Source of the DNA: an uncultured Gammaproteobacteria bacterium
GTDB taxonomy: Bacteria > Patescibacteriota > Microgenomatia > UBA8517
Assembly (NCBI GenBank): GCA_964540475.1
Contig: CAZIMC010000002.1
Location: 6,709-70,708 of the forward strand
Reading direction: 5' to 3'
DNA: 64,000 bases
In this document: positions 5,738 to 55,516 of the stretch, in pieces
Layout of the letters: the number at the start of each line of letters is the position of its first letter
Numbering within the stretch: position 1 is the first letter of the stretch
Translations under genes and position numbers: made by a program
Notes under the pieces: model-generated
The model's input: only the letters and a program-made list of their open reading frames with translations
Database searches by the model: none
Told to the model about the DNA's origin: nothing

Positions 5738-8659
5738 ATGGTGAGCAAAAATATTACCTACGATCATAGGTCAGTTGAGGCTAGATGGCGGGATTACTGG
5801 GACAATTCAGGACTATACAAAACTGATCTGAATGCTTCGAGGGGACGTTTTTACAATTTATGGATGTTCCCGTATCCTTCCGGGGAGGGTCTACATGCCG
5901 GGCACGCTTTTGCTTCAACAGGTAGCGACATTTACGGCCGTTTTATGAGAATGAAAGGTAGAGAAGTGTTTCAGCCAATCGGCTACGACTCATTTGGCAT
6001 TCATTCTGAAAATTTTGCGATCAAGACAGGTGAAACGCCTCAAATAATGCTTACACGCACAACTAAGCACTACGAAGCACAGTTAAGAAGCCTGGGCCAC
6101 GGCTATGATTGGAGTAGAGTGTTGAGTACTTCTGATATAGATTATTATAAATGGACACAGTGGCTATTTGTCGAAATGTTTAAGGCTGGCCTTGCATACA
6201 AGAAAAAAGCTAGCGTTAATTATTGTCCTTCGTGCAAGACGGTGTTGGCAGACGAGCAGGTAATGACGCCAAAGCAGGCTGGGAAAGAACCCAAAGACGC
6301 AAGGGGTAATAGGGTTTCTGGAACTGATGATACCCGAGTTTGCGAGCGATGTGGTACGGTGGTCCAAAAAAAAGAATTGGATCAGTGGTTTTTTAGGATT
6401 ACCGACTATGCAGACCGGCTACTTTCTGGTTTAGATAAAATTGATTGGAGCGAGCGCGTTAAGATTGCTCAAAGAGAGTGGATAGGGCGGTCCGAGGGGC
6501 TTCGGATCCAATTCCAAATTACAAATTCCAAATTACAAATTCCGGTGTGGACTAAGTTTTGGGAAACAATATATGGGGCTACTTTTCTGGTTGTTGCACC
6601 CGAATACGCACAAAACGAGCTTGTCCACTTGATTCCCCAGGAAAATAAAAAGAAAGTTCTTGAATATATCAAAATGTCTCTTAGTAAGTCAGAACAGCGG
6701 AGGAAAGAAGAGGCAAAAGAAAAAACCGGAGTGTTTACAGGAATTTACGCTGTAAATCCGGCAAATGGTCAAAAGATCCCTGTTTGGGTTACCGACTATG
6801 TGTTATTGGGTGTTGGAACGGGTGCTGTAATGGGAGTTCCTGCGCACGACAAGCGCGACTTTGAATTTGCAAGAAAATTCAACTTGAGACTTCTCCCTGT
6901 TGTCAAACCTAAAGATAGCGCATATAGAAGCTATTTGATGGGTGCAAAAGATATATCAGATAAAGATCTGGAAGATATCAAAGTAATGCTTGTCGAGACC
7001 GATAAAGACGGAGACAAAAAGCTTATCATACCTTCGGATTCACTTGCTGAATATAAAAAGCTTATAAAAGAGAAGTTAGACTTTGGATTTTGGAATGAAG
7101 TGGTGGGAGATACTGTATGGTTTTGCTTTAAAGATAAAACTGGTAATACAACAGAATATATATTATCAGAAAATAATATGTCAGAAATTGCTAAAAAATG
7201 TTCTGAGTTTAACAACGATCCGCTTGAAAAAACAGAGAACCTGTGGCTCTATTTAGCAGAGAATGATTGGTATCAGCCACTCATTGTTCAAGAAAATGGC
7301 GGGGAGTTAATTAACTCAGGGCGGTTTGATGGCATGTCCGCCTGGGGAGAGGGTAAGAAAAAGATGGCTGAGTGGATGATTAAGGAAAGTTTTGCCGAGT
7401 GGAGCACGACTTACCATTTACGAGATTGGTTAGTAAGCAGACAGCGCTACTGGGGGCCTCCGATTCCAATGATCTACTGCCCGAAATGCGCCAAGGAGGG
7501 CAGGAGCTGGCTTAGTCAAAATGAAGCTAACGTTAGGAAAGATCAGACAGACTGGACTCATGCGGGTTGGTACCCTGAAGAAAATTTACCTGTCATCTTG
7601 CCAGAAATGGATAACTATCAGCCCTTAGGTACCGGCAAAAGTCCTTTGGCATCTGTGCCTGATTTTTATGAGGCTAAATGTCCTTACTGTGATGGCGATG
7701 CTACTCGCGAGACAGATGTTTCAGATACATTTGTTGATTCCGCGTGGTATTTCTTAAGATATCCGAGTGTTAATGCAGAAAGTAATAGTAAATTACCCTT
7801 TGATCCAGGAATAACAAAGAAATGGTTACCAGTTTCACTATACTTTGGCGGTGCCGAACATTCAGTGCTGCATTTGATGTATGCCCGTTTTGTAACAATG
7901 ATGCTTTATGATTTGAAGCTAGTTGATTTCGAGGAGCCTTTCCCGAAGTTTTTTGCCCACGGTTTAATGATCAAGGACGGTGCAAAGATGAGTAAATCCA
8001 GAGGAAATGTGGTTAACCCGGATGAGTATATTGAAAAATATGGCGCAGACACCTTGAGACTTTACACCATGTTTATGGGGCCAATGGATGGATATCCGGA
8101 TTTTCGTGACAGTGGGATTGAGGGCATGAGGAGATTTATTAATAAGGTTTATAAACTTTTCGGTGAAGCATTGGTGGAGGAAGAAGCGAATGAAGTAATC
8201 ACAAAACTGCATCAAACCATAAAAAAGACTACCGAAGATATTCAAGGTTTTAGATACAATACCGCAATTGCGTCAATTATGGAATTGGTAAATCTTATCC
8301 AGGTCAAAGGTACTTCAGAAAATACACTAAATGTACTAGCCAGACTCCTGGCGCCATTCACCCCGCACTTAGCCGAGGAATTATGGCAAGAAGTGTTGAA
8401 GCAGAGCGGGTCAGTTCACAATGCAAGCTGGCCAGAACACAATCCTGAATTGATAAATGTGGATCAAGTTGAGCTTGTAGTTCAGGTAGACGGAAAAGTT
8501 CGTGCCCAATTAATGGTAGGCATTAATCATTCCAAGGATCGTGACTTTGTATTCGATTTAGCCAGAAGGGAGCCTAAAGTCGTTAAATGGCTAGAGGGTA
8601 AAGAGGTCAAAGATGAGATATTTATTCCTGAAAAGCTCATTAACTTTGTTACTAAATAA
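5738..8659 (+). CDS. leuS: Leucyl-tRNA synthetase
   Basis: HAGH (HIGH) motif near the N-terminus and KMSKS motif (KMSKSRGN), 973 aa, class I LeuS architecture with editing insertion. Confidence 0.95.
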   Translation: MVSKNITYDHRSVEARWRDYWDNSGLYKTDLNASRGRFYNLWMFPYPSGEGLHAGHAFASTGSDIYGRFMRMKGREVFQPIGYDSFGIHSENFAIKTGETPQIMLTRTTKHYEAQLRSLGHGYDWSRVLSTSDIDYYKWTQWLFVEMFKAGLAYKKKASVNYCPSCKTVLADEQVMTPKQAGKEPKDARGNRVSGTDDTRVCERCGTVVQKKELDQWFFRITDYADRLLSGLDKIDWSERVKIAQREWIGRSEGLRIQFQITNSKLQIPVWTKFWETIYGATFLVVAPEYAQNELVHLIPQENKKKVLEYIKMSLSKSEQRRKEEAKEKTGVFTGIYAVNPANGQKIPVWVTDYVLLGVGTGAVMGVPAHDKRDFEFARKFNLRLLPVVKPKDSAYRSYLMGAKDISDKDLEDIKVMLVETDKDGDKKLIIPSDSLAEYKKLIKEKLDFGFWNEVVGDTVWFCFKDKTGNTTEYILSENNMSEIAKKCSEFNNDPLEKTENLWLYLAENDWYQPLIVQENGGELINSGRFDGMSAWGEGKKKMAEWMIKESFAEWSTTYHLRDWLVSRQRYWGPPIPMIYCPKCAKEGRSWLSQNEANVRKDQTDWTHAGWYPEENLPVILPEMDNYQPLGTGKSPLASVPDFYEAKCPYCDGDATRETDVSDTFVDSAWYFLRYPSVNAESNSKLPFDPGITKKWLPVSLYFGGAEHSVLHLMYARFVTMMLYDLKLVDFEEPFPKFFAHGLMIKDGAKMSKSRGNVVNPDEYIEKYGADTLRLYTMFMGPMDGYPDFRDSGIEGMRRFINKVYKLFGEALVEEEANEVITKLHQTIKKTTEDIQGFRYNTAIASIMELVNLIQVKGTSENTLNVLARLLAPFTPHLAEELWQEVLKQSGSVHNASWPEHNPELINVDQVELVVQVDGKVRAQLMVGINHSKDRDFVFDLARREPKVVKWLEGKEVKDEIFIPEKLINFVTK
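6509..6544 (+). repeat. In-frame tandem repeat (about 14-nt unit caaattccaaatta x2.5) inside leuS, encoding IQFQITNSKLQIP.
   Basis: ccaattccaaattacaaattccaaattacaaattcc read directly from the sequence. Confidence 0.8.
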
Positions 8660-11861: not shown

Positions 11862-13610
11862 ATGCCAAAGAAAGCTATTGAAAAAGCAATAAAAGATGTG
11901 ACTGGAGTTACCGACATTGAACTTTCTATTCCTGAAAATGAACTGCATGGGGATTACACGACAAACATCGCCATGATCATGTTTGCAAATTTTCAAAATC
12001 CAAATTCCAATTTTCAATCAAGCACCAATAATCAATTTTCAAAATACAAAAACCCAAGAGAACTTGCGAACGAATTAGTGACGGAACTTCAAAAAGACAA
12101 AGAGCTTTATAAAGTTGTTGAGAAAATTGATGTAGCAGGACCTGGGTTTGTTAACTTCTGGCTCAAGAAAGATGTGCTGTTTGATACTCTACTTAATATT
12201 AACTCACATATTGATACATTTGCAAAAGTAGATGTATTGGCTGGCAAGCGGATAATGATTGAGTTTGGTCAGCCTAACACTCACAAGCTTCCTCACATTG
12301 GGCATTTGTTTTCTTATATTTATGGTGAGAGTGTGGCTAGGCTACTTGAGGCTAACGGAGCCGAGGTGTTTAGAGCCAATTATCAGGGCGATGTAGGGTT
12401 ACATGTTGCAAAATGTCTTTGGGCCATAAGAGAAATTGGGATGGAAGAGTTTAGGAAAGTGGAAGCCAAAAGCTTACCAGAAAAGGCAGCCTATCTACAA
12501 AAAATGTATCAGGAAGGCAGTAAAGCTTATGATGAAAATGAGAACGCAAAAACTGCGATTCAGTCGTTAAATAAACAAATTTACGAAAAAGACGTTGAAG
12601 CTTTTCCATTATGGGAGGTGACTCGTGGTTGGAGTGTTGAATATTATAAAGAATTCGAAAAACGTTTGGAGATTAATTACGACCGGTATTTTTACGAATC
12701 TCAAGTCTACAAAGAAGGTGTTGAAATAGTTGAGCGTAATTTAAATAAAGTATTTAAGAAAAGCGAAGGGGCAGTAATTTTTGAAGGGAGCAAGCGCGGC
12801 CTTCATGATCGGGTTTTTGTAACGCGGTATGGAACTCCTACTTATGAGGCCAAAGACCTCTATCTTGAACAGCTGAAATATAAAGAGTGGCCGTTTGATC
12901 TTTTGATAATCACGACTGCCAATGAACAATCCGACTACTTTAAGGTGGTATATAAGGCGATTGAGGAAGTGGAGCCAAACCTCACAGGGAAATTAAAGCA
13001 TATAGGGTTTGGAATGGTTAACTTAAAGAGCGGAAAGATGAGCTCCCGAACGGGTAATATCATTAGTGCTATTGAACTGGTTGATGCAGTAGTTGATAGA
13101 GTGAGACAGTTAGGTAGTACTGGCGAAACTACAGAGATAGTCGGGATCGGGGCAGTTAAATATTCATTCCTGAAGAACAATCCTTTGCAGGATACCAGAT
13201 TTTCCCTGGAAGAAAGTATTGCAGCAGAAGGAAACAGTGGACCTTACCTTCAGTATACATACGCTCGTACGCATAGCGTACTGGCAAAAGCAAGGGCAAA
13301 TGGCAAATGGCAAATGACAAATTCAGCATTTAGCGTTGAGCATTTAGCGTTGAGCGCAGAAGAACTCGTTCTTGTGCGAATTTTATCCCAATTTCCTGAG
13401 ATTATTGCCGCTGCCGCCAAAAATTACTCACCAAACACACTCTGCAATTATCTTTTTAATTTAGCCCAAAAATACAACTCTTTCTATAATAGCAATAAAA
13501 TTCTCGGGGGTGAAAATGAGGAATTTCGGTTAATACTAACTTCGGCAGTGGCAAATATTCTTAAAAAAGGGCTTTATCTTCTTGGGATTTCGTCGCCTGC
13601 GAAAATGTGA
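11862..13610 (+). CDS. argS: Arginyl-tRNA synthetase
   Basis: HIGH motif (PHIGHLFSY), KMSSRTG (KMSKS-like), anticodon-binding C-terminus. 582 aa. Confidence 0.9.
   Translation: MPKKAIEKAIKDVTGVTDIELSIPENELHGDYTTNIAMIMFANFQNPNSNFQSSTNNQFSKYKNPRELANELVTELQKDKELYKVVEKIDVAGPGFVNFWLKKDVLFDTLLNINSHIDTFAKVDVLAGKRIMIEFGQPNTHKLPHIGHLFSYIYGESVARLLEANGAEVFRANYQGDVGLHVAKCLWAIREIGMEEFRKVEAKSLPEKAAYLQKMYQEGSKAYDENENAKTAIQSLNKQIYEKDVEAFPLWEVTRGWSVEYYKEFEKRLEINYDRYFYESQVYKEGVEIVERNLNKVFKKSEGAVIFEGSKRGLHDRVFVTRYGTPTYEAKDLYLEQLKYKEWPFDLLIITTANEQSDYFKVVYKAIEEVEPNLTGKLKHIGFGMVNLKSGKMSSRTGNIISAIELVDAVVDRVRQLGSTGETTEIVGIGAVKYSFLKNNPLQDTRFSLEESIAAEGNSGPYLQYTYARTHSVLAKARANGKWQMTNSAFSVEHLALSAEELVLVRILSQFPEIIAAAAKNYSPNTLCNYLFNLAQKYNSFYNSNKILGGENEEFRLILTSAVANILKKGLYLLGISSPAKM
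13295..13357 (+). repeat. Two adjacent in-frame tandem duplications inside argS (ggcaaat x3; gcatttagcgttgag x2). A second low-complexity caaatt-rich tract lies at about 11984-12060.
   Basis: gcaaatggcaaatggcaaatgacaaattcagcatttagcgttgagcatttagcgttgagc encodes ANGKWQMTNSAFSVEHLALSAEE. Confidence 0.8.
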
Positions 13611-20875: not shown

Positions 20876-21325
20876 CTAATCGCTCTCAATCACTTTCAAT
20901 AGTCGTACTGATTTTAAGTTGGATGGTTTTTGAGTTAAGGCCAACATTAGCGATTCTTTAAGAAACGCTTTTCTTAAAGGGTATTTATCTGCCATCAAGT
21001 TTTCCAAGGAAGCCCAAGCAAAGTTTCTGACTTCAGATTCTTGAATCGTTATTTTACTTTCATCATCAATTTCAGCATAGAAAAAGGCTATTACATAGTC
21101 ATTGTCTTTGTAGTGTGCGATATTGGTTTGCACAAGGCCAGTGAGATTTACTTCTAAGCCTGTCTCTTCTTTTATTTCGCGTCTTGCGCAGTCAATTAAG
21201 CTTTCTCCTGGTTCTGCGTGGCCAGAAGGCGGTCCCCATTTGTTTGGTTGTTTGCTTTCTTTTGTGGTTTGGAGAAGGAGGATTTTATTGTCTTTAACAA
21301 TACAACCTCCGGCGATAAATATCAT
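20876..21325 (-). CDS. NUDIX hydrolase
   Basis: Nudix box GHAEPGESLIDCARREIKEETGL. Confidence 0.85.
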   Translation of the reverse strand: MIFIAGGCIVKDNKILLLQTTKESKQPNKWGPPSGHAEPGESLIDCARREIKEETGLEVNLTGLVQTNIAHYKDNDYVIAFFYAEIDDESKITIQESEVRNFAWASLENLMADKYPLRKAFLKESLMLALTQKPSNLKSVRLLKVIESD

Positions 21326-21367
21326 TATGGTAATGATTATACAGGGTGTGATACAATTTTTCTCACT

Positions 21368-22642
21368 GTGGGTACTAAATTAAGCCTGCCAAAAGGCACA
21401 CAAACACCCAATCACATAGCCATTATTCCAGACGGGAACAGGCGTTGGGCCAGGGCTCGCGGCCTTCATACGCTAAGGGGACACAAAAGAGGCTTTGAAG
21501 CTGCTGTCAAAATTGGTAGGGCAGCACGCGATTTGGGGATTCACACCATCACTCTCTGGGGGTTCTCGACCGAAAATTGGGACAGGGATAAATCAGAAGT
21601 TGACTACTTAATGCGCCTGTATGTAAAGCTAGTGGACGACTATTTAAAAGAAGCAATGGAGAACAAGGTTAAAATAGTACATTTAGGAAGAAAGGATAGG
21701 CTACCAAAATTCCTTTTAAAAAAGCTTTCATACGCAGAAGAAAAGACAGCCCATTTTGACAAATTTATAATGAATATCGCCATAGATTATGGGGGGCAAG
21801 ATGATATTATTCGAGCAGTAAAGGCCATGATTGCAGAAGGGGTGAGTGGGGATGAAGTGGAAAAAGAACTGTTTGACAGATTTGTAGATACAAAAACCCA
21901 GCCATATCCATATGTAGATTTAATGATCAGGACTTCGGGCGAGCAACGCACAAGTGGGTTTTTATTATGGCAATCTGCATATACTGAGTATTATTGGGAG
22001 AGAGAACATTTCCCGGATTTTACTCCTGAAAAGTTTAAAGAGGCGATAATGGATTACTCACGGAGAAGAAGGAGGTTTGGTGGTAACGATGCCGTTGAGC
22101 ACTTTACATTTAAACCGGAAATTGCTGCTAAGTTTGAGCTTGCGTGGTGGCGTCTTGCTAAAATCCCGGAAGGAACAAAGTTCGTTGACTATGCAGTTAA
22201 CCATTTAAAGGAGCAGTACGGCCTTAGCAAGAAATTTGCTAAAGAGGCGGCTAAATTAATGCTCGAGGCAGCACTTCATGAAGAAGATGACAAATGGGAG
22301 AAAGCTAGAATCAAGCTTAAGAAGTTCTACGGCATAATTAAAGAGGAAGTTCAGCTTGCGTTTGAGCCGGAACTGGTCGCTCACCTAGAAGTTAAGTTAA
22401 GGCGGGAGATTGAAGGGAAAACTGAAGTTGAGGGGGTCGGGGAAGCTGAGGAGACTGCAAAAAGCTTATACGCAGAGGTTTACAGGATTTCGCTTTTCCA
22501 GGCTGCCAAACTGGCGCACCTTCGAGTTTTGGCTTCAGTTGAGCGTAATTTAGCAAGACGGGGTTTTGGAGATCATCATTGGGACCGCGCTCAGGACTAC
22601 CTCGAAAAATTCTACTATGCGCTGAAGGAACGCGTAGCGTGA
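21368..22642 (+). CDS. uppS: Undecaprenyl-diphosphate synthase (cis-prenyltransferase) fused to a helical K/E-rich C-terminal extension of about 200 aa. The start is uncertain. The ORF is open from 21218 but overlaps the NUDIX gene; a GTG at 21368 is proposed.
   Basis: HIAIIPDGNRRWA and MIRTSGEQRTSGFLLWQSAYTEYYW UppS motifs. The extension carries RRRRRFGG and has no recognisable domain. Confidence 0.75.
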   Translation: MGTKLSLPKGTQTPNHIAIIPDGNRRWARARGLHTLRGHKRGFEAAVKIGRAARDLGIHTITLWGFSTENWDRDKSEVDYLMRLYVKLVDDYLKEAMENKVKIVHLGRKDRLPKFLLKKLSYAEEKTAHFDKFIMNIAIDYGGQDDIIRAVKAMIAEGVSGDEVEKELFDRFVDTKTQPYPYVDLMIRTSGEQRTSGFLLWQSAYTEYYWEREHFPDFTPEKFKEAIMDYSRRRRRFGGNDAVEHFTFKPEIAAKFELAWWRLAKIPEGTKFVDYAVNHLKEQYGLSKKFAKEAAKLMLEAALHEEDDKWEKARIKLKKFYGIIKEEVQLAFEPELVAHLEVKLRREIEGKTEVEGVGEAEETAKSLYAEVYRISLFQAAKLAHLRVLASVERNLARRGFGDHHWDRAQDYLEKFYYALKERVA

Positions 22643-22752
22643 CGACTGCGCAGAGCCAAGCTACGCTTACCACGCACTCAAAGAGAGAGTTGCTTAAAGA
22701 TAATGCGTGGCCAAGCTCTGCTTACTATGCGCTGAAGGAACGAGTAGCCTAG
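22613..22752 (+). repeat. Direct repeat of the uppS 3' terminus (30 bp, synonymous variants only) flanking an insert of about 80 bp. The insert carries two copies of the GGCCAAGCT(NN)GCTTAC motif and a tRNA-Thr-5'-end-like fragment.
   Basis: tactatgcgctgaaggaacgcgtagcgtga occurs at 22613-22642 and tactatgcgctgaaggaacgagtagcctag at 22723-22752. Motif copies at 22654-22670 and 22707-22725. Confidence 0.8.
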
Positions 22753-23020
22753 GTAAAAACTTCAATATCCAAACTTCAAGAAACAAACAAATTCCAATTA
22801 CTTAAAATCCAATCCACTGGCATTAGTAGTTATGAATTACTTGTAACTTGGTGCTTGGTTATTGGAATTTCCCTTGAAAGGGGCTTGACACTCTTGTACT
22901 GCTTTGATATGTTGTGATTAACATAGTTAGCAAATACGCTCAAGGTAATATAAAAGAGCATACAAATGCTTAAAAGTATATCAGCGTGAAAACTAACTCA
23001 GTTTAGATAACAGCTAGACA

Positions 23021-23239
23021 ATGGACGAAAATAAAAAGAAAAAAGTACGGCTTGAGGACCTTCCAGACCTTTTGACAGTTCGTGAGGTCTCAGACCTGCT
23101 CCGAGTATCTCCGCTCACAATAAAAAGATGGGGAAAACGCGGCAAACTTCCCGCAATTCGAATAAATTCTAGGGGCGACAGAAGATACAAGAAAGAGGCA
23201 GTACTTTGGCTTCTCGGAATGCAAGAAAAATCTTCTTAA
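23021..23239 (+). CDS. Excisionase-family / AlpA-like helix-turn-helix DNA-binding protein (72 aa). No integrase is nearby.
   Basis: LTVREVSDLLRVSPLTIKRWGKRGKLPAIRI fits the HTH_17/excisionase DNA-binding domain pattern. Confidence 0.65.
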   Translation: MDENKKKKVRLEDLPDLLTVREVSDLLRVSPLTIKRWGKRGKLPAIRINSRGDRRYKKEAVLWLLGMQEKSS

Positions 23240-23282
23240 ACGATTTTTGTTTTCTCGCTGCTATTTTGATAATATATTATTG

Positions 23283-23563
23283 TTGACAGCTAAATAAATG
23301 CGTTAATATCGGAGTCGCGATCCGAGAGCAGCGGTAATAAATAACCGACGGATGCAAACCGTAAAAAGTTGCTAGAGTGTGTCGGAAACGGAGCACTCGA
23401 AATAATTGAGGGTTTAGCCCGCGTTTCGAGTCCCGCTTAGGCGGGTTTTTTAATGGGATAAACTAATAAAGGGTGGTACCGCACGTAAGAAGTGCCCCTT
23501 CAACGGCTTAAATAATTAGGCAGTTGGAGGGGCTTTTTTGTTGCCTTAAAGGGAGTATGTTAG
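23283..23563 (+). promoter_or_regulatory. Structured non-coding leader element L1. It has a sigma70-like promoter, a hairpin containing GCAAACC, two tandem intrinsic terminators and a GGTGGTACCGC box. It is a paralog of 25620..25911.
   Basis: TTGACA 23283-23288 and TAATAT 23304-23309. Terminator cccgcttaggcggg+U6 at 23432-23451. Terminator gccccttcaac...gttggaggggc+U6 at 23494-23538. ATG at 23564. Confidence 0.55.
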
Positions 23564-24385
23564 ATGGAAAGAGAAACAACAAGAACAGAATATGCAAACC
23601 AGGACTTATGGTCATTGATGGAATCTTCATGGCCGGGAGCCGTTGTAAAGAATAAGGAAAATTTTAAATTTGGACCAGTATCTAATGTATGCATTGTACT
23701 CTGTCCTTTATACAAAAAAGGCGATATTAAGAGAACCGACATTCTTGATGTCGGTGAGAGCTTGGAAGAATCGCGGGTTTTTGGTAAGACGAAAGCATAT
23801 GAAGCTGCTTTACGAGCGTTGAGTTTTTCTTTACAAAAAACGAGCTCGTCGTTAAGGGTGAATTTTGTTATTGCCAACAAAGGAGTTTTGCTTGAAAGAA
23901 ACCCTGTTGCTGAAGATTACGAAAAGCTTAAGTACCACAACGAACTTTATACCAGATTGATTGACGAATGGGCTCAAATAATGGGATTTGAGTATATCTT
24001 GACTGATTATTTTGAGAGAGGGATTGATTTCCCAGAGTTTGTGAGGGTGACCCAAAAGATCCCGAAAAATACTGAACACAGTGAAGATATCAATAAAAAT
24101 GAACCCTTTTTGCTGATAGAATATCTTAATAGATATCTGAAGCCAGTTGAGCTGATTCAAAACAATGGCAATAATAGGCATGTTGCAAAAAGTCTCATTA
24201 AGGCGTTCGGATTGAATGCAGCCTTTTGGCTGACTGCCGGATATTTGGTATTTGACCATAAAATCCCCGAAATCATTGGAGAAAATGGAATTTACATTGT
24301 GTCGGAGAGATTTGACCCTTTATATTCCATTGTTAAGTTTACACCAAACCTTGAGAAACTAACCAGAATCCAGTTAAAAGCATGA
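23564..24385 (+). CDS. Hypothetical protein (273 aa), no recognisable domain
   Basis: Long ORF directly downstream of the L1 leader, translationally coupled (ATGA) to the next gene. Confidence 0.6.
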   Translation: MERETTRTEYANQDLWSLMESSWPGAVVKNKENFKFGPVSNVCIVLCPLYKKGDIKRTDILDVGESLEESRVFGKTKAYEAALRALSFSLQKTSSSLRVNFVIANKGVLLERNPVAEDYEKLKYHNELYTRLIDEWAQIMGFEYILTDYFERGIDFPEFVRVTQKIPKNTEHSEDINKNEPFLLIEYLNRYLKPVELIQNNGNNRHVAKSLIKAFGLNAAFWLTAGYLVFDHKIPEIIGENGIYIVSERFDPLYSIVKFTPNLEKLTRIQLKA

Positions 24386-25170
24386 AGTTCAAATTTTTCT
24401 CATTCAACAAGATAGGGGGCACATTTTATGATAGTGAGTCAGGAAGTAAAACCTTGGTTATTTATGCCATGGGGGCACCGACAGTGCCTGACAATGGCAC
24501 GCTTACCATCGCACCTTATATTTTAGATAAGAAAATTGACTTGTTTGTTCCCGATTATATTGGATTTGGCAGAAGCTATGGAAAGTTTACTCCGAAAGGT
24601 TGCATTCGAACACTCCTCCTTCTTTATAACAGTTTTAAGAGAGGGGTGTTTGGGGTCAATCATTATGAGCTTGAGAAAAGGTTTTTCAAATACAAAAGAA
24701 TAATTTTTGTAGGCAAAAGCTTGGGTGCTGTTTATGTTGTCCTCCTTCCAAAATATAAAAGGGAAATTAAGGAGATTGGAATATTTTGTGGGTCTATGGA
24801 TCAAAGCGAGCAAGGGAAAATTAAAGGTGAAGAAAGCAATAAGAGTTTTATTGAAGGCCTCTCAAAGGATTTTACCTTCTTATACAGGGGAATGAATCCC
24901 GGCATTTGGTGGAAGCATGTTGAGGATGGGGATGGACTATCGCCAATGGATAATATAGGTTATCTCGAGAATACAAGGGTTTTTATCGCTCATGGCGCAA
25001 AAGATACATGTGTTCATTACTCAAAATCAGTAAAATTTTACGAAAAGTTAGTGAAAACATTTCCCAACAAAGTATCCAGTTTTAAGCTTAGACTTTACAG
25101 AAATGGTGACCACGGAGCCTCTACCACAGACAACGCGATTAATGATTTTCTTAAGTGGATTTCAGTTTAA
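24382..25170 (+). CDS. Alpha/beta-hydrolase fold protein
   Basis: Nucleophile elbow GKSLG, downstream acidic and HG motifs (FIAHGAKD, NGDHG). 262 aa. Confidence 0.6.
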   Translation: MKFKFFSFNKIGGTFYDSESGSKTLVIYAMGAPTVPDNGTLTIAPYILDKKIDLFVPDYIGFGRSYGKFTPKGCIRTLLLLYNSFKRGVFGVNHYELEKRFFKYKRIIFVGKSLGAVYVVLLPKYKREIKEIGIFCGSMDQSEQGKIKGEESNKSFIEGLSKDFTFLYRGMNPGIWWKHVEDGDGLSPMDNIGYLENTRVFIAHGAKDTCVHYSKSVKFYEKLVKTFPNKVSSFKLRLYRNGDHGASTTDNAINDFLKWISV

Positions 25171-25242: not shown

Positions 25243-25578
25243 ATGATTGAAATTAAATTTAACCAGATGGTTTCAGGGCTAACTACTGAAGATGAGGTTA
25301 ACAGGTATGCACAAGAAGGTCATTGCAGACTTTGGGTACTTCATGCTGCCGAAACATTGATGCGCGAGTTTGGTATAACTAAAAACGAGATAGAGTTTAG
25401 GGAGGTGGAGGTTTCGCCTATGTTTTTCCACACCTTTTTAAAAGTGAGTATTGGAGAAGACAATTATTTTTTGGATGGAGCGGGAGTCAACGGTTCAGGT
25501 AGTTACTTCGGTTTAGAATGTGAGGCGCCTGTTTACTTGCAAAACAGTAGGCAGGATAGTCTCAATTTCTATATTTGA
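25243..25578 (+). CDS. Hypothetical small protein (111 aa)
   Basis: ORF only. Confidence 0.4.
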   Translation: MIEIKFNQMVSGLTTEDEVNRYAQEGHCRLWVLHAAETLMREFGITKNEIEFREVEVSPMFFHTFLKVSIGEDNYFLDGAGVNGSGSYFGLECEAPVYLQNSRQDSLNFYI

Positions 25579-25619
25579 CAATTAATACCTGTTGCAAGTA
25601 GAATAGTTTTACTTTAAAA

Positions 25620-25911
25620 AGTTAATAGGATTGCTGAGAAGGAGCACAGTAGGTTTTTCTGGTGGCCATAGAGAGAACTGGTGGTTGGTGCAAACCAGTC
25701 GTACAGAAAAAAGCGAATTACACTCTGGAGCTGGTTTAAAGTAAATTAAACCCGGGTCGCCCGTAATAGCAAAAGGCGTGTCGCGCGAGTGATAAGCCCG
25801 AAAAGGTTAAGATGGTAACATTTTAACGAATCAAGGTGGTACCGCCTTAGAATGAAGGCCCTTGTTTGAACCTAGCATGTGGGTTCAAACAAGGGCCTTT
25901 TTTGATTTTAT
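25620..25911 (+). promoter_or_regulatory. Structured non-coding leader element L2, paralog of L1. It shares the GCAAACC-containing hairpin, the AAGGTGGTACCGCC-TTAGAA box, and a terminator hairpin of different sequence but the same position (covariation).
   Basis: ggtggtaccgcc at 25836-25847. Hairpin aaggcccttgtttgaacc...ggttcaaacaagggcctt plus U5 at 25855-25903. ATG at 25912. Confidence 0.55.
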
Positions 25912-26841
25912 ATGCCAGAAAGAATAAAAGACAAACAGGAACTGAAAGATATGTTTGTGTCTCAACCGACAATTGGGACAATTCTGCGTGTGTTGGATAA
26001 TGAAGTATACAGAAATTCGCATTTAGAAGAGCGTTTGGGATGGGTGGGAATATCTGGTAGTAAGGCTAGACATGCTGGGCTTGAAGGAAAGAACGGGGTG
26101 GTGAGTGACGAAGACTTGGTTATTATCCTAAAGGGATCTTCACAAAATGACCCATTAAACATGCAAGCTTATGAACAAGTCCTTGATTGTATTAATCAGG
26201 CAACGAAAATTATGGTTGAGGAAAAGGGTATTATTCCTGTATATGCATCAACAATCAGACTGGAAGATGCGCAAATGGCGCTTGCTAGACTGATTCATGC
26301 AAGTGGTCAGATAAGGATGATACACTCTCTAATTTATCCGTCTCCTGAGGCAGTGGTTGCGTTTGAACCGCCGCTTCTGGCACGCAATCTAGTAGGCCAA
26401 GCCCTGACTCTTTGGGGTGATGAAAGAATAGCAGAGGATGTAAACCGATCAGCCAGAAATGGTGCACGCGTAGAAAACATAAACTTGACGATAGGTGGAC
26501 TTGATGGAATCAGTGATAATTTTAGAATGCTCAGAACAAATAGACATGTCCTGCCGGCTCTATTCTTGGGCCCGCAGGCCGTGCATGTTCTTGACTACAG
26601 TGTAAAATGGGCAATGGCTCAAGTTGTAGAAAAAGCTGGTGGAGCAGAATGCGCAACTTGGGGTGAAATAATAGATAATTTTCCCTCTGAGGAGGGCGGT
26701 CAATTGTTGATAGAGGTAGTAAAAAAGATTAGACTGCTTCGGGCCCAAGAGGAACATGTCGATTTGGATGAATTAGAAAATCTATATAGAGAGGTAATTT
26801 CCTTGTGGCCACTATTTACCTCTATTAGAAGCGGAAAGTGA
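25912..26841 (+). CDS. Pol-beta-superfamily nucleotidyltransferase domain protein (309 aa). It resembles the ANT/AadA-like or CD-NTase-like GS...DxD architecture. Substrate unknown.
   Basis: GISGSKARHAGLEGKNGVVSDEDLVIIL fits the hG[GS]-x9-13-[DE]h[DE]h NTase active-site motif. Confidence 0.55.
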   Translation: MPERIKDKQELKDMFVSQPTIGTILRVLDNEVYRNSHLEERLGWVGISGSKARHAGLEGKNGVVSDEDLVIILKGSSQNDPLNMQAYEQVLDCINQATKIMVEEKGIIPVYASTIRLEDAQMALARLIHASGQIRMIHSLIYPSPEAVVAFEPPLLARNLVGQALTLWGDERIAEDVNRSARNGARVENINLTIGGLDGISDNFRMLRTNRHVLPALFLGPQAVHVLDYSVKWAMAQVVEKAGGAECATWGEIIDNFPSEEGGQLLIEVVKKIRLLRAQEEHVDLDELENLYREVISLWPLFTSIRSGK

Positions 26842-27608
26842 AGATAACTTTTCTTGGAACAGGTGGTGACGGGGGTATCCCGCAAATCAACTGCAGGTGT
26901 ATAAACTGTCGTAAAGCTCTCAATAACACCAGGCTTCGACGTTTACGTAGCTCGCTTATGGTTGTCCGAGATAGCAAAATGATAGTGATGGATTGTGGTC
27001 CAGACTTTAGACAACAGCTATTAAATGCTAATATATGGCTTAAAGATATCGCCCTTATTGTGATAACACATTTACATTTTGACCATGTAAATGGACTGAT
27101 GGAGCTGTCAACTGGAGCGCCTTATAACACCCCTTTGTATACATCAGAAAAGAACAAGAATTTACTTCTTCAAATGTCTAACATTTCATATCTTGTAAAA
27201 GCAGGATATGCCAGATTTGTTACCCCCAAGCAAGCATCGGAATTTGGAGTAAGTTTGTTTGAAATTCCGCATAGCAAAAGTTTTCCCACAAGCGCGGTAA
27301 TAGTAGCAGAGAAAGATAAGTCAGTTTGGTATTCACCGGATATATCGGATATTACACAAGAGATCAATAATAAGCTGACAAAAATGTCCCTGGTCATATT
27401 TGACTCCACTTTTTTGAATGAAGATAATCTACCAGCGCATAAGTTGGGTCACATAACCGTGGAGAATTCCTCTATAGTACTTTCCAATCTAGGAAGAAAA
27501 GTTTTGTATACACACATTAATCATACAGAGGATCAACGTGACCTAAATAGATATTTGGAAAAATTTGGATTCAGGCTTGCCCATGACATGTTATCATTAG
27601 AAGTTTGA
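26838..27608 (+). CDS. PqqB-like MBL-fold metallo-hydrolase
   Basis: N-terminal LGTGGDGGIPQINCRCINCR resembles PqqB (LGSAAGGGFPQWNCNCxNC). HxHxDH motif ITHLHFDHVNG. ATGA overlap with the NTase gene. Confidence 0.65.
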   Translation: MKITFLGTGGDGGIPQINCRCINCRKALNNTRLRRLRSSLMVVRDSKMIVMDCGPDFRQQLLNANIWLKDIALIVITHLHFDHVNGLMELSTGAPYNTPLYTSEKNKNLLLQMSNISYLVKAGYARFVTPKQASEFGVSLFEIPHSKSFPTSAVIVAEKDKSVWYSPDISDITQEINNKLTKMSLVIFDSTFLNEDNLPAHKLGHITVENSSIVLSNLGRKVLYTHINHTEDQRDLNRYLEKFGFRLAHDMLSLEV

Positions 27609-27734
27609 CAGAACGATACCCCGGGGTTTATGCAATTATTGACAAGAATGATTGGTTAGTTTATCATCACTTCAATAACTTGAATTGATAATGACAATTC
27701 TTTATACATATTTAATTTCGAAAGCGGAGAGATA

Positions 27735-27759
27735 AACGCGCCACAAGCGCGTTTTTTTT
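27735..27759 (+). terminator. Rho-independent terminator (acgcgcc-acaa-ggcgcgt plus U8) ending 5 nt before the ATG of the next gene
   Basis: aaacgcgccacaagcgcgtttttttt. Confidence 0.7.
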
Positions 27760-27764
27760 GTTTT

Positions 27765-29009
27765 ATGGCAGTTGAGATTGATATACATCCACAATCAAAC
27801 GGAGTTGTTGATAGGACGGATTGGGCTCGAGAAAACCTTCCGTTTCTTGATGCAAGAGGGGAGCTTGTTTATTTGAAGGAATGGCGAGATTCAAAAAGCT
27901 CCGCAGTGGGGTGGTTGGCAAGATGGGGTGACCCAGAAGTAAATGTTTCTGGTGGAGGTGTGCGTATGAAAATAGGTGGACAACCTCATGAAGCTGTATT
28001 TCTTGCATCAACAATGTATGAAAAATTCGGCATAGCAGGACCTCAGATTAACGGATCGAAATTTGTTATAGATTATGATCCCACTGCACCAGACAAGTTG
28101 GATGTACTGGACAGATTTCTCACAGCATTTTTGCTGGATCTTGAAAATGTGGGCACTGCTGGCGACTTAAATGTTTCTGAAAGTGAGGTGGCAGGTGTTT
28201 TGGGAAGGCACGGTATAGGCAATCCACAGCAAGGAATTCTTAAGTCCTTGGGTATTGAAGGCAACCTGGGAAGGTTGACTCAACTTATGAGAATGCCTTT
28301 TTCTGAAAGTTTTAGTCCAAAGCACAGTCACCTAATGGATGTTACGGCGGGTTGGAGCACGTACATTGCTACTGAAACGTACTTTAGAAAAATGGGTATG
28401 GATTTGCATGGTCGCACAATTGCAATTCAAGGGATAGGAGCGGTTGGGGGTAGCGCGGCTTACTTTTTCGAAAAAGCTGGCGCAAGGGTCGTTGCCGCTG
28501 CTGATGCACAAGGATCCTTCCGTATCGGCCCCGGGGGATTAACGTCTTGCCTTAGAAACATAGATACGGTAACAGGATGTGTGCCTCGAGAGAAAGGGCT
28601 AGAGGTTGCGGGAGATTCTCAGGCAATTCTTCAGATTCCAGTGGACGTTTTAGTGCTCGCTGCGAAATCGGAAGTTGTGGGCCTAGAAGAAGCAAGATGT
28701 ATACAAGCCCCGCTTATAGTAGAAGGAGCAAATCATCCCATCCTGCGTGATGCCGAAAAGTATCTCACACAGCGGGGGGTAAAAGTTTTGCCAGACTTTA
28801 TTGCTAATGCGGGCACCGCTGAATTTTTCACTATTGGTATGTTGGGAAGCGAGGAACTTTCCGAACAGGGCGTATTAGACCAGGTTGCGCAGATTACTAT
28901 AAACGCTATGACAGAAACCATTGAAACCGCTGACAATTCGGGATTAACGTATAGACAGGCAGCTCAGATAGTATCTACCAATAACTTGTGGCAGAAAGTT
29001 GTGAGATAA
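27765..29009 (+). CDS. Glu/Leu/Phe/Val-dehydrogenase-family amino-acid dehydrogenase-like protein. It is visibly more G+C-rich than its neighbours.
   Basis: Rossmann GIGAVGGSAAYFFEKAGARVVAAAD and C-terminal VLPDFIANAGTAEF resemble the family. The N-terminal catalytic Lys/GGG box is not clearly conserved. Confidence 0.55.
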   Translation: MAVEIDIHPQSNGVVDRTDWARENLPFLDARGELVYLKEWRDSKSSAVGWLARWGDPEVNVSGGGVRMKIGGQPHEAVFLASTMYEKFGIAGPQINGSKFVIDYDPTAPDKLDVLDRFLTAFLLDLENVGTAGDLNVSESEVAGVLGRHGIGNPQQGILKSLGIEGNLGRLTQLMRMPFSESFSPKHSHLMDVTAGWSTYIATETYFRKMGMDLHGRTIAIQGIGAVGGSAAYFFEKAGARVVAAADAQGSFRIGPGGLTSCLRNIDTVTGCVPREKGLEVAGDSQAILQIPVDVLVLAAKSEVVGLEEARCIQAPLIVEGANHPILRDAEKYLTQRGVKVLPDFIANAGTAEFFTIGMLGSEELSEQGVLDQVAQITINAMTETIETADNSGLTYRQAAQIVSTNNLWQKVVR

Positions 29010-29012
29010 TTT

Positions 29013-30278
29013 ATGACAAAAGAGATTTTAGCTTCCTTACTTTCTCCAGAGAGGGCTGCCACTTCCATAAATGACGCATTGACAAGGGGTGTGGTGGAAA
29101 TCTTACCCGATAGGGAGAGTTTGGAAGCTGTTATGCGTGGGAATAAAATCCGGCTTTATTTAGGAATCGATCCCACAAGCCCCGATCTTCATATTGGCCA
29201 CACAGTACCCCTTCGAAAGCTTAGGCAGTTTCAGGATCTTGGACACGATGTAATCCTTTTGTTTGGTACTTTTACTGGTATGATAGGCGATCCTACTGAC
29301 AAATCTGCTTCCAGGGTCCGACTAACTCGAGAGCAAATTGAAGGAAACGTGAGTAGTTATGCTGACCAGGCAAGTAGAATATTGGACATGTCAAAAGATG
29401 CTCCCAACCCGGTTACCATACTATATAACCACGAATGGCTGGGTGAATTGAAATTTGAACAAGTTGTAGATATTGCTTCGAATTTCACAATTTCTGAAAT
29501 GCTTGATCGATCCATGTTTCAGCGGAGGTTAGAAGAAGGTAAACCTCCCAGATTGCATGAAATTTTATATCCATTGATGCAGGGCTACGACTCTGTTGCT
29601 ATGAATGTAGATTTAGAAGTGGGAGGCAGTGACCAAACATTTAATATGCTTGTAGGGCGCGATCTAATGAAAGTTTATGGTGGAAAAGAGAAGTGGGTTA
29701 TGGCAACACGACTAATTTCTGACCCTGCTGGAAACAAGATGGGTAAAACCGAGGGAAATATTGTAAACGTTCGTGATTTGCCGGAGGTTAAATACGAAGC
29801 CATTATGTCTTGGCCAGATACTGCAATTGGTGTCGGGTTTGAGCTATTAACAAATGTTCCTATGTCAGTTGTAAAAAGAATACAAGACGAAATTTTGCCA
29901 CAATCGATTGAAGGAGGTTCTGAGATTGGCATCGTTGCATTAAAGGAGGCGTTGGCTTTTCGGGTGGTAGCTGAATTGGATGGGGAGCCTGAGGCTCGTT
30001 TTGCAATGGAGGAGTTTGATCGCGTAAAAAGAAAGAAGAAGTTCCCAAGGCGAATGAGGGAGATCAGTGTACCTCGTGGATCACTAGTTGAAGATATATT
30101 AGTTGCGTCAGGTTTAGTAAAAGATGTTGATGAAGCGAGGGCTCGCATAGCCCAAGGCTCTGTTGTCCTTGGTGAGCAGCCGGTTAGAAGGAGTATGTAT
30201 GCTAATTTTGATTCGGCGATAATCTCAATCGGTAAAAACCCTATACGCTTAATAGCGCGTGTGAACACAAAGAAATAG
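29013..30278 (+). CDS. tyrS: Tyrosyl-tRNA synthetase with C-terminal S4 domain
   Basis: GIDPTSPDLHIGHTVPL (HIGH), GDPTDKS, KMGKTEGN (KMSKS). 421 aa. Confidence 0.9.
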   Translation: MTKEILASLLSPERAATSINDALTRGVVEILPDRESLEAVMRGNKIRLYLGIDPTSPDLHIGHTVPLRKLRQFQDLGHDVILLFGTFTGMIGDPTDKSASRVRLTREQIEGNVSSYADQASRILDMSKDAPNPVTILYNHEWLGELKFEQVVDIASNFTISEMLDRSMFQRRLEEGKPPRLHEILYPLMQGYDSVAMNVDLEVGGSDQTFNMLVGRDLMKVYGGKEKWVMATRLISDPAGNKMGKTEGNIVNVRDLPEVKYEAIMSWPDTAIGVGFELLTNVPMSVVKRIQDEILPQSIEGGSEIGIVALKEALAFRVVAELDGEPEARFAMEEFDRVKRKKKFPRRMREISVPRGSLVEDILVASGLVKDVDEARARIAQGSVVLGEQPVRRSMYANFDSAIISIGKNPIRLIARVNTKK

Positions 30279-55296: not shown

Positions 55297-55431
55297 TTAT
55301 CATATTGGCAGGTAGTAAAGCAGTAAGTTGATAATGTTGAGGCAAGCCTGCTTACGCAGGCAGGAATACGCCTTAAAAAACTATTCCATCTTGGCACTAT
55401 CGAACCTAAGCTCAAAGCACAAGTTTTCGTG

Positions 55432-55516
55432 TGCTGGGGGAAGGATTCGAACCTTCGTAGCCCTTTCGAGCGACAGTTTTACAGACTGTTGCAATTGTCC
55501 ACTCTGCCACCCCAGC
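55432..55516 (-). tRNA. tRNA-Tyr (GTA) with long variable arm
   Basis: Acceptor GCTGGGG/CCCCAGC, anticodon loop CTGTAAA, long variable arm, T-loop TTCGAAT. Confidence 0.7.

Follow-up and report, generated by a model that had tools for sequence, protein, structure and literature searches.

Background

The feature-complete archetype of the T-box riboswitches is the tyrS leader found in Bacillus subtilis (PMC7583486), and transcriptional T-boxes generally require a long Stem I (PMC7583486). An ultrashort Stem I is described by Sherwood et al. (2015), as that work is cited in PMC7583486 and PMC7778990, for the translational ileS T-boxes of actinobacteria, which form 'class II' in TBDB. A 2024 perspective on the Patescibacteria names riboswitches only as prospective tools, and no paper connecting T-box riboswitches with Patescibacteria, the Candidate Phyla Radiation (CPR) or Saccharibacteria was found in the searchable literature, the incomplete coverage of which means that this is no proof of novelty. 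Here we describe a leader, L2, upstream of an operon in a stretch of 64,000 nucleotides (nt) of contig CAZIMC010000002.1 (hereafter the window, in whose numbering positions are given), which on its sequence is very probably a T-box riboswitch of the canonical kind, acting by transcription attenuation and with specificity for tRNA-Tyr. An earlier reading of the window, made without database searches (the sequence-only reading), had paired L2 with a preceding leader, L1, as paralogous members of an unknown class of structured RNA.

Identity and anatomy of the L2 leader

With Rfam 15 at curated thresholds, the sole match in the window other than tRNA genes was to the T-box leader family RF00230. 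The score of L2, 105.4 bits (E = 3e-22), exceeds the gathering score of 93, and the match extends over model positions 1-219, which is the full model. The kind of element is therefore already known rather than a new leader class, and any Rfam-based pipeline would annotate L2 as a tyrosine T-box. The 300 nt leader is also unusually stable when folded (-104.8 kcal/mol, z = -5.98), none of 200 dinucleotide shuffles equalling it; this, with the covariation among orthologs described below, upholds the proposal that L2 is a selected, cis-acting, terminator-ended RNA structure in front of an operon. Transcription probably starts near 25611, downstream of a sigma-70-type promoter (Table 1).

Alignment to the RF00230 model assigns the T-box core AAUCAAGGUGGUACCGCC, a CCGUAA element and the elements of a long Stem I: a kink-turn-like GA motif at the base (GC-UGAGAA / GGAGC), a specifier loop with AGUA on its 5' side and GAA-U-UAC-A on its 3' side, and a distal motif, GGUUGGUG. 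The motifs of the distal stem that bind the tRNA elbow are recognisable in sequence: AGAGA at 25672-25676 is the AG bulge, and GGUUGGUGCAA at 25683-25693 forms the distal loop. Every feature itemised in the sequence-only reading lies where it had been placed. The hairpin ACUGGU/ACCAGU (25677-25699), with TGCAAACC (25689-25696) in its loop, is the apical part of Stem I; AAAAAG (25707-25712) ends an A-rich strand; the CCCG-rich segments (25751-25763 and 25797-25801) are Stem IIA; and the box AAGGTGGTACCGCC-TTAGAA occupies 25833-25852. The terminator hairpin and U-tract are equally real, the tract ending 8 nt, and not 9 nt as first given, before the ATG at 25912.

The specifier codon, UAC, is followed directly by a purine, A, and a tRNA-Tyr(GUA) gene is present in the same window. 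The fourth base of the bulge UGGU (25837-25840) is complementary to the discriminator A of this tRNA; as it is the codon and discriminator contacts that define a T-box/tRNA pair (PMC7778990), both are satisfied by a tRNA encoded within the window. The antiterminator is weak (-8.6 kcal/mol) against the terminator (-33.5 kcal/mol), and 25855-25864 is common to the 3' half of the former and the 5' arm of the latter, an overlap of about 9 nt. From these predicted folds the two helices are mutually exclusive, with the terminator as the default, an arrangement that has been described for transcriptional T-boxes (PMC7583486; PMC7778990). L2 thus has both a UGGN-bulge antiterminator matching the discriminator and a mutually exclusive terminator with a U-tract, and every defining T-box feature that can be sought in a sequence was found.

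By analogy with characterised T-boxes, L2 would bind tRNA-Tyr, sense its charging state and switch the operon on when tyrosine is scarce. Transcription would begin from the promoter at 25575-25604 and the nascent leader would form its long Stem I, the specifier loop offering UAC to the GUA anticodon, whilst Stem II and the Stem IIA/B pseudoknot would help in reading the codon and the loops of the distal Stem I would stack against the tRNA elbow. The free 3' end of an uncharged tRNA (A73-C-C-A) would then pair with UGGU, stabilising the weak antiterminator (25832-25864) and blocking the terminator (25854-25903), such that RNA polymerase enters the operon, comprising the nucleotidyltransferase-like gene, the metallo-beta-lactamase (MBL) hydrolase gene and, ancestrally, tyrS. 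With charged tRNA the far more stable terminator would form, and transcription would end 8 nt before the first ATG.

Table 1. Positions of the leaders, their parts and the associated genes in the window and in related loci.
Feature	Position	Strand	Basis or remark
L1, T-box of different build	23297..23539	+	core, antiterminator, terminator
273 amino acid (aa) protein, first gene under L1	23564-24385		no family match
262 aa S9-like alpha/beta-hydrolase	24382-25170		follows 273 aa gene
Sigma-70-type promoter TTGACA-18-TAGAAT	25575..25604	+	11/12 consensus positions
L2 T-box leader, RF00230	25627..25866	+	covariance-model match
L2 long Stem I	25633..25731	+	alignment to RF00230 model; ortholog conservation and covariation
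L2 specifier codon UAC (Tyr), context GAA-U-UAC-A	25719..25721	+	specifier-loop position in model alignment
L2 Stem II; Stem IIA/B element CGGGUCGCCCGUAA	25733-25752; 25753-25766	+	model alignment, covariation
L2 Stem III hairpin	25806..25827	+	model alignment, folding, covariation
L2 antiterminator	25832..25864	+	A1 CAAGG/CCUUG; 7 nt bulge UGGUACC (25837-25843); A2 GCCUU/AAGGC
L2 intrinsic terminator, 19-20 bp	25854..25900	+	then U6 tract, 25898-25903
309 aa protein, Pol-beta-type nucleotidyltransferase fold (ANT(4')/AadA-like)	25912..26841	+	motif, predicted structure
MBL-fold hydrolase, PqqB/PhnP-like	26838..27608	+	4 nt overlap with upstream stop codon
L3 leader-like module	27639..27762	+	promoter-like site, mini-ORF, terminator
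Glu/Leu/Phe/Val-dehydrogenase-family gene	27765..29009	+	after 156 nt gap; not at this position in seven related loci
tyrS, tyrosine--tRNA ligase	29013..30278	+	3 nt past dehydrogenase; TIGR00234 281.5 bits (cut-off 113.8), PF00579
tRNA-Tyr(GUA), discriminator A73	55431..55516	-	putative L2 ligand, same window
L010 leader			RF00230 98.2 bits
L008 leader			RF00230 92.2 bits
L004 leader			RF00230 90.2 bits
L001 leader			RF00230 89.6 bits
L009 leader			RF00230 87.2 bits
L003 leader			RF00230 86.4 bits
L006 leader			RF00230 80.9 bits
tRNA-His(GUG) gene, L003	8096-8169
tRNA-His(GUG) gene, L004	8982-9056
tRNA-His(GUG) gene, L006	8954-9027
tRNA-His(GUG) gene, L008	7847-7919
L1-class leader, L011	4707-4990
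L1-class leader, L013	1-200

Orthologous leaders and covariation

Homologs of the first gene under L2 were found in seven independent genomic contexts from related metagenomic genomes (L001/L002, L003, L004/L005, L006/L007, L008, L009 and L010), and a permissive scan detected a T-box in all seven of the upstream gaps (RF00230 E-values 1e-16 to 1e-20), so that the further homologs anticipated for L2 do exist. The gap measures 360-640 nt in the five contexts other than L009 and L010. The absence of T-boxes from these relatives, as suggested by an Rfam scan at the gathering threshold, was rejected as a threshold effect on the basis of the permissive scans.

When the seven orthologous leaders were aligned with L2, mean column identity was 66%, but GAATTAC (the specifier with its context) and CAAGGTGGTACCG were invariant in all eight; at the RNA level, GAAUUAC and CAAGGUGGUACCG were unchanged throughout, as were AGAGA and GG..GGUG.AA. 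RNAalifold recovered the T-box helices, with compensatory changes in 39 of 82 predicted pairs. Pairs were then counted on a cleaned, terminator-form structure of the alignment and compared with 500 shuffles: 93.3% of cells were paired (79.4 +/- 1.1% in shuffles) and 37 of 67 pairs had changed on both sides (17.6 +/- 2.9 in shuffles), no shuffle reaching any of the observed pairing measures. Sliding the partners by one to three columns reduced pairing to 36-54%.

Every helix save the 4 bp base of Stem I contributed to this covariation. Double-sided changes affected all six pairs of the distal Stem I helix, five of six in helix 5 (Stem II), seven of nine in helix 8 (Stem III) and seven of 18 in helix 9 (the terminator, with 97% of cells paired); helix 6 (Stem IIA/B) was paired in 100% of cells. 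Antiterminator geometry was identical in the eight leaders, the sequence of A2 varying whilst its pairing was kept. The covariation of the L2 terminator is real because it is seen among these orthologs; the sequence-only reading had instead deduced it from the differing terminator stems of L1 and L2, which belong to different riboswitches and would be expected to differ between any two T-boxes.

In L001 (5463-5534, and likewise in L002), a 72 nt tRNA-Tyr(GUA)-like gene lies approximately 125 nt upstream of the tyrosine T-box of the locus. The gene, which is served by a separate promoter-like site, is without the long variable arm expected of a bacterial tRNA-Tyr, and its score with the Rfam tRNA model is only 40 bits.

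Genes downstream of L2

The first gene encodes a 309 aa protein without a Pfam or NCBIfam match, belonging to a family that comprises just 17 of 5.8 billion clusters, in which the sole informative labels are 'Patescibacteria group bacterium' and 'bacterium'. The family alignment contains an invariant G-S...D-x-D motif (S48 G49 S50, D66 and D68). The best PDB matches of its AlphaFold model (predicted local distance difference test score, pLDDT, 88.3) are ANT(4')/kanamycin nucleotidyltransferase, AadA, ANT(9) and MntA-type minimal nucleotidyltransferases, at probabilities of 0.95-1.0 but with template modelling (TM) scores of 0.22-0.28 and identities of 12-15%; the family profile had no significant match to PDB sequences. 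The predicted structure makes the nucleotidyltransferase label reasonable at the level of fold, rather than of a specific family or substrate. The second gene has its best partial matches in PqqB and PhnP, the closest solved structures being 6b9v, PqqB (4z7r) and PhnP (3g1p). The order of a nucleotidyltransferase and then an MBL gene, which had been predicted from the open reading frames (ORFs), is therefore correct, the former as a fold-level match.

The genes under L2 had been considered simply unknown, but the conserved operon ends in tyrS, a gene fitting the amino acid of the specifier. In L001/L002, L003, L004/L005, L006/L007 and L008, a homolog of the 309 aa protein is followed by an MBL protein of 256 aa and tyrosyl-tRNA synthetase (TyrRS), with spacers of 0-20 nt or overlaps. 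L009, which at 64% identity is the nearest of the relatives that come with genomic context, has a PF00282 decarboxylase, dependent on pyridoxal phosphate, between the MBL and TyrRS genes, and a prephenate dehydrogenase/dehydratase fusion adjoins the cluster. In L010 the third gene, within which the contig ends, encodes a different protein, which is not tyrS and has no Pfam family. TyrRS is hence present in six of the seven related loci, directly after the MBL gene in five and past a single inserted gene in L009, and the ancestral unit was clearly composed of the T-box, nucleotidyltransferase, MBL and tyrS.

The ANT-like/MBL pair is strictly conserved, its members overlapping or adjacent, and stands behind a tyrosine T-box in all eight contexts, TyrRS following in all but L010. 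A defence-system function for the pair was considered and rejected, a PADLOC search of the two genes having returned nothing meaningful. In several of the related loci a tRNA-His(GUG) gene and a histidyl-tRNA synthetase (HisRS) gene lie convergently, immediately after tyrS, adding to the clustering of aminoacyl-tRNA synthetase (aaRS) and tRNA genes around these operons.

L1 and a class of leaders with an ultrashort Stem I

L1 retains Stem II and the Stem IIA/B pseudoknot (GACGGAUGCAAACCGUAA), but its Stem I is an ultrashort hairpin (UCGGA-GUCGCGA-UCCGA), 76 Stem I positions of the RF00230 model being replaced by a 7 nt loop. It scores 41.1 bits, below the gathering score of 93, and therefore has neither the score nor the long Stem I that would place it in RF00230. 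The features of the wider T-box superfamily are nevertheless apparent in its sequence: a core (23469-23484) with a UGGN bulge, the pseudoknot, a codon in accord with the genes that follow, and a terminator (23494-23533) with U6 after it. An internal hairpin with a U6 run is also present at 23432-23451. The codon in the loop, CGC, specifies arginine, and as judged from this triplet, from relatives in which ArgRS comes after the gene pair and from the agreement of codon and downstream gene across the class, L1 is an arginine T-box and not a second copy of L2 with the same ligand. L1 and L2 are thus related, both being T-boxes, but not paralogous in the manner proposed, having different specifiers and a different Stem I.

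The parallels drawn between the two leaders hold in part. Exactly two copies of the 11-mer GGTGGTACCGC are present in the window, starting at 23472 and 25835; it is the T-box core, not a chance match, and the core and the position of the terminator with its U-tract are common to both leaders. The 5' parts align no better than would be expected by chance (global alignment z = 1.5 against shuffles), and, with the core and U-tract set aside, two exact matches of 8 nt or more were counted where 0.55 are expected (p ~0.12), so that L1 and L2 are not significantly similar elsewhere. In L1, TGCAAACC lies in the loop of the Stem IIA/B pseudoknot, a loop that differs in sequence (NNNN) between members of the L1 class, in covariation with a segment further downstream; the presence of TGCAAACC in both leaders is a coincidence between non-homologous elements. 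The CCCG segments are similarly non-equivalent, being part of the internal hairpin and U-run in L1.

The first gene under L1 has a ribosome-binding site (RBS), AGGGAG, downstream of the U-tract. Its 273 aa product has a predicted fold (pLDDT 86.4) that best matches cyclodipeptide synthases (CDPSs; 6ez3, 9j61, 9i5m/9iaj) and TyrRS catalytic domains, a likeness without support at the level of sequence, as the family profile had no significant match to PDB sequences. A CDPS-like or class-Ic-aaRS-like enzyme, if the model is correct, would be unusual under an arginine T-box. Homology between the 273 aa and 309 aa proteins, which would have made the operons paralogous, was rejected, with E = 0.88 and different predicted folds.

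Only eight homologs of the 273 aa gene were found. L011 and L012 both have the leader, the 273 aa homolog, an S9-like hydrolase and arginyl-tRNA synthetase (ArgRS) in that order, and L013 has the same first two genes. Truncated T-boxes like that of L1 precede the gene in L011 (31.4 bits), where the hairpin CGGA-GUCGCGA-UCCG is shared with L1, and in L013 (30.7 bits); L012 has a T-box-like core further upstream, with no Rfam match at E <= 1. A signature of the class, GACGGA-N4-AACCGTAA-N85-115-GGTGGNACC, was scanned over 185,579 species genomes and identified a further 20 leaders (L014-L033), bringing the L1 class to at least 23 members, mostly from Patescibacteria. Fourteen of the 20 are labelled as Patescibacteria lineages (Amesbacteria, Gottesmanbacteria, Daviesbacteria, Levyibacteriota, Paceibacterota, Saccharibacteria, Dojkabacteria or 'Patescibacteria group'), four as Gammaproteobacteria, one as Sulfotelmatobacter and one as 'bacterium'. 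L015, L019, L028, L031 and L032 come from metagenome-assembled genomes labelled 'uncultured Gammaproteobacteria' or 'Sulfotelmatobacter', the gene content and leaders of which are Patescibacteria-like; these may be mislabelled bins.

Members of the class begin with AAAAGCGUUUGA, continue with a 5-7 bp hairpin with covarying stems, and then with AAGCUGC. The specifier lies in the hairpin loop of 4-7 nt, where the triplet, with a purine after it, changes in step with the genes it precedes: CCC or CCU (Pro) stands before ornithine cyclodeaminase, ArgZ-like_C, ProB/ProA/ProC and prolyl-tRNA synthetase (ProRS), whilst CGC precedes Lyase_1 (ArgH-like), GNAT with an M20 deacetylase-like gene, or the 273 aa/S9 pair. 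The latter is followed by ArgRS in L011, as in L012, the leader of which was not matched by the signature. In 20 of 23 leaders the 4 nt loop in the hairpin GACGGA-NNNN-AACCGUAA has its complement in a segment 4-7 nt downstream, through many different sequence pairs, and none of 1000 permutations of the loops among leaders reached the observed mean complementarity, which identifies this as the Stem IIA/B pseudoknot. As a MAFFT alignment of the 5' domains mis-registered the three shortest members, no pair counts were taken from it, and the evidence for the class is instead from hairpin detection in each sequence and the permutation test.

A covarying G+C-rich hairpin followed by U5-8 ends 21-32 nt before the T-box core in 22 of the 23 L1-class leaders and in none of the eight of the L2 class. 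It looks like a terminator or a hairpin-dependent pause ahead of the discriminator, and one idea is that it may act as a programmed pause compensating for the missing elbow platform. The L1-class leaders themselves end in a G+C-rich hairpin and U-run, as opposed to the RBS sequestration of TBDB class II. With L1-type scores of 31-41 bits, far under the RF00230 gathering score, standard annotation would miss them.

In the wider neighbourhood of L1, some 650 nt (22643-23290) separating it from a prenyltransferase-like gene (21218-22642) contain only small ORFs of at most 72 aa. The order in L011 is leucyl-tRNA synthetase (LeuRS), ComEA, ComEC, a 302 aa gene, the leader, the 273 aa gene, S9 hydrolase and ArgRS. 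The window retains the stretch from LeuRS (5738-8659) through to ArgRS (11862-13610), with the L1 leader and its two genes approximately 10 kb downstream. A further T-box before the window ArgRS gene was looked for and rejected, the gap of about 490 nt upstream of argS having neither a T-box core nor an Rfam match.

The L3 module

The gap between the MBL and dehydrogenase genes contains a leader-like module, L3. It is composed of a promoter-like site, TTGACA-17-TATCAT (27639-27667), that agrees with the consensus at 11 of 12 positions, a 14-codon mini-ORF (27691-27735; MTILYTYLISKAER) with two Tyr codons, the TAA of which overlaps the base of a hairpin, and that terminator-like hairpin itself, AAACGCGCC/GCGCGUUU, of 8 bp with five G-C pairs and a U8 run, ending 2 nt before the dehydrogenase ATG. 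A similar module precedes the inserted decarboxylase gene in L009 (2154-2285): TTGACA-17-TAATAT, a 20-codon mini-ORF (MLQDIFEYKICSYPFRKGDL) with two Tyr codons and a TAA abutting the hairpin, and AACGCGCC-AUA-GGCGCGUU with U6, nearly identical to the L3 terminator. Across both modules the next gene begins 2-8 nt on. No Rfam family was found in 27600-27780, where the only matches were sub-threshold and terminator-like (Trp_leader, 22 bits against 41). On the sequence of these two examples, L3 is a candidate second attenuator, possibly of the leader-peptide or ribosome-masking type.

Alternative explanations

That L2 is a tyrosine T-box is favoured by its family membership, by the codon and its invariance, and by the discriminator match, mutually exclusive helices, covariation and link to tyrS. 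Several observations weigh against it. Six of the seven orthologous leaders fall slightly under the gathering score of 93 (80.9-92.2), L010 alone passing; the middle helix of Stem I contains several non-canonical pairs in L2, helix 3 being 84% paired in the alignment; the first two genes have no known tyrosine link; and neither the ATG at 25912 nor that at 27765 is preceded by a visible Shine-Dalgarno sequence. The spacers at these sites (25904-25911 and 27755-27764) are merely U/A-rich, and the orthologous leaders are alike in this. Specifier calls made from sequence can slip by one register, and with the two accessory genes this lends some colour to the idea that L2 has another specificity (AUU, UUA or ACA) or is a decayed, non-switching relic. 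We consider this very improbable, given that UAC precedes the conserved purine and adjoins the closing helix, as in the model, that the heptamer GAAUUAC is invariant between variable flanks, that tyrS is the conserved third gene, and that tRNA-Tyr agrees with the discriminator match; the strong covariation seen throughout the helices speaks against decay. The proposal that a new riboswitch class, of which L1 and L2 would be two copies, senses one small-molecule ligand or signal draws on the terminator near the start codon and the exact 11-mer in both, and on the failure of L1 to reach the gathering score. It carries almost no weight when L2 passes RF00230 across the full model, the 11-mer is none other than the T-box core, the leaders resemble each other outside it no more than by chance, and the codons differ, each fitting the linked aaRS (UAC for Tyr with TyrRS, CGC for Arg with ArgRS).

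A more substantial doubt concerns the reach of the tyrosine T-box. Lying between the MBL gene and dehydrogenase/tyrS, the promoter-like site and strong terminator-like hairpin of L3 make read-through from L2 to tyrS uncertain in this genome, and count against control of the whole cluster by L2. L2 might instead control nothing beyond the nucleotidyltransferase-like and MBL genes, with its transcript ending at the terminator of 27734-27762 and dehydrogenase-tyrS being driven from 27639-27667 through L3, possibly by a two-Tyr leader peptide. The near-consensus promoter, the 8 bp hairpin with its U8 run and the overlap of the MTILYTYLISKAER stop codon with the stem base are in keeping with this, as is the recurrence of the layout before a different inserted gene in L009, when the five insert-free loci lack such a module. 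Conversely, there are only two examples, the mini-ORF peptides of which are dissimilar, two Tyr in 14-20 codons being statistically weak; no antiterminator alternative or Rfam match was found for L3; tyrS was ancestrally directly under the T-box; and terminator strength cannot be read from sequence alone. Such a division of the operon is a real possibility, to which we assign somewhat less than even chances.

Significance and comparison with known systems

L2 itself is mainly a clean annotation and opens no new question. It does document canonical tRNA-sensing T-boxes in probable Patescibacteria/CPR genomes; judging by the closest named homolog of the 309 aa protein and the taxa bearing L1-class leaders, the host is probably a Patescibacteria/CPR bacterium. 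Organisms of this group rely on hosts for amino acids. By guilt by association, the specifier ties an ANT-like nucleotidyltransferase and an MBL hydrolase to the tyrosine-starvation response, providing a handle for biochemistry. More novel leads are the architecture of L1, the internal hairpin and U-run, the L3 module and the enzyme pairs under T-box control. Tentatively, and as the less probable view, L2 and the L1 class (terminating, without an elbow platform, with an ultrashort specifier hairpin, Stem IIA/B kept and a possible pause hairpin) could be an undescribed Patescibacteria repertoire driving enzyme pairs ahead of the cognate aaRS, perhaps acting on the amino acid, tRNA or aminoacyl-tRNA in starvation. 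The pairs in question would be the ANT-like and PqqB/PhnP-like MBL proteins with tyrS, and the CDPS/TyrRS-like Rossmann protein and alpha/beta-hydrolase with argS.

In function, the closest known relative of L2 is the B. subtilis tyrS T-box, the founding member of RF00230. The two have in common a long Stem I in which the specifier loop, the AG bulge and the distal loops are all present, Stem II, Stem IIA/B and Stem III, an antiterminator with a 7 nt UGGN bulge opposing an intrinsic terminator, the UAC specifier and the link to tyrS. L2 differs in its host, probably of the Patescibacteria/CPR rather than a Firmicute, in the two unannotated enzyme genes before tyrS, joined here by a dehydrogenase gene with the L3 module, and in having no visible Shine-Dalgarno sequence. 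In lactic acid bacteria, tyrosine decarboxylase clusters link tyrS and its tyrosine T-box to a decarboxylase gene. The likeness to these lies in a tyrosine-responsive tyrS beside an amino-acid enzyme, the PF00282 decarboxylase in L009 and the dehydrogenase here; gene order, the nucleotidyltransferase/MBL accessory genes and the phylum are different.

For L1 and its 22 relatives the nearest described system is that of the actinobacterial ileS T-boxes, with which they share the absence of an elbow-binding distal Stem I, the placing of the codon in a short terminal hairpin and the retention of Stem II, the IIA/B pseudoknot and the T-box discriminator core. As to Stem I type, reviews and TBDB describe the ultrashort form only for translational actinobacterial T-boxes, so its combination with a terminator makes L1 more novel than L2 and runs counter to the general statement that transcriptional T-boxes need a long Stem I. 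If the class works as its sequences are read here, it would bear on the kinetics of tRNA capture during transcription. The L1 class is set apart from the actinobacterial leaders by an intrinsic terminator and U-tract, indicative of control at transcription, in place of RBS sequestration, by its occurrence in Patescibacteria, by Arg and Pro specifiers and by the extra internal hairpin and U-run.

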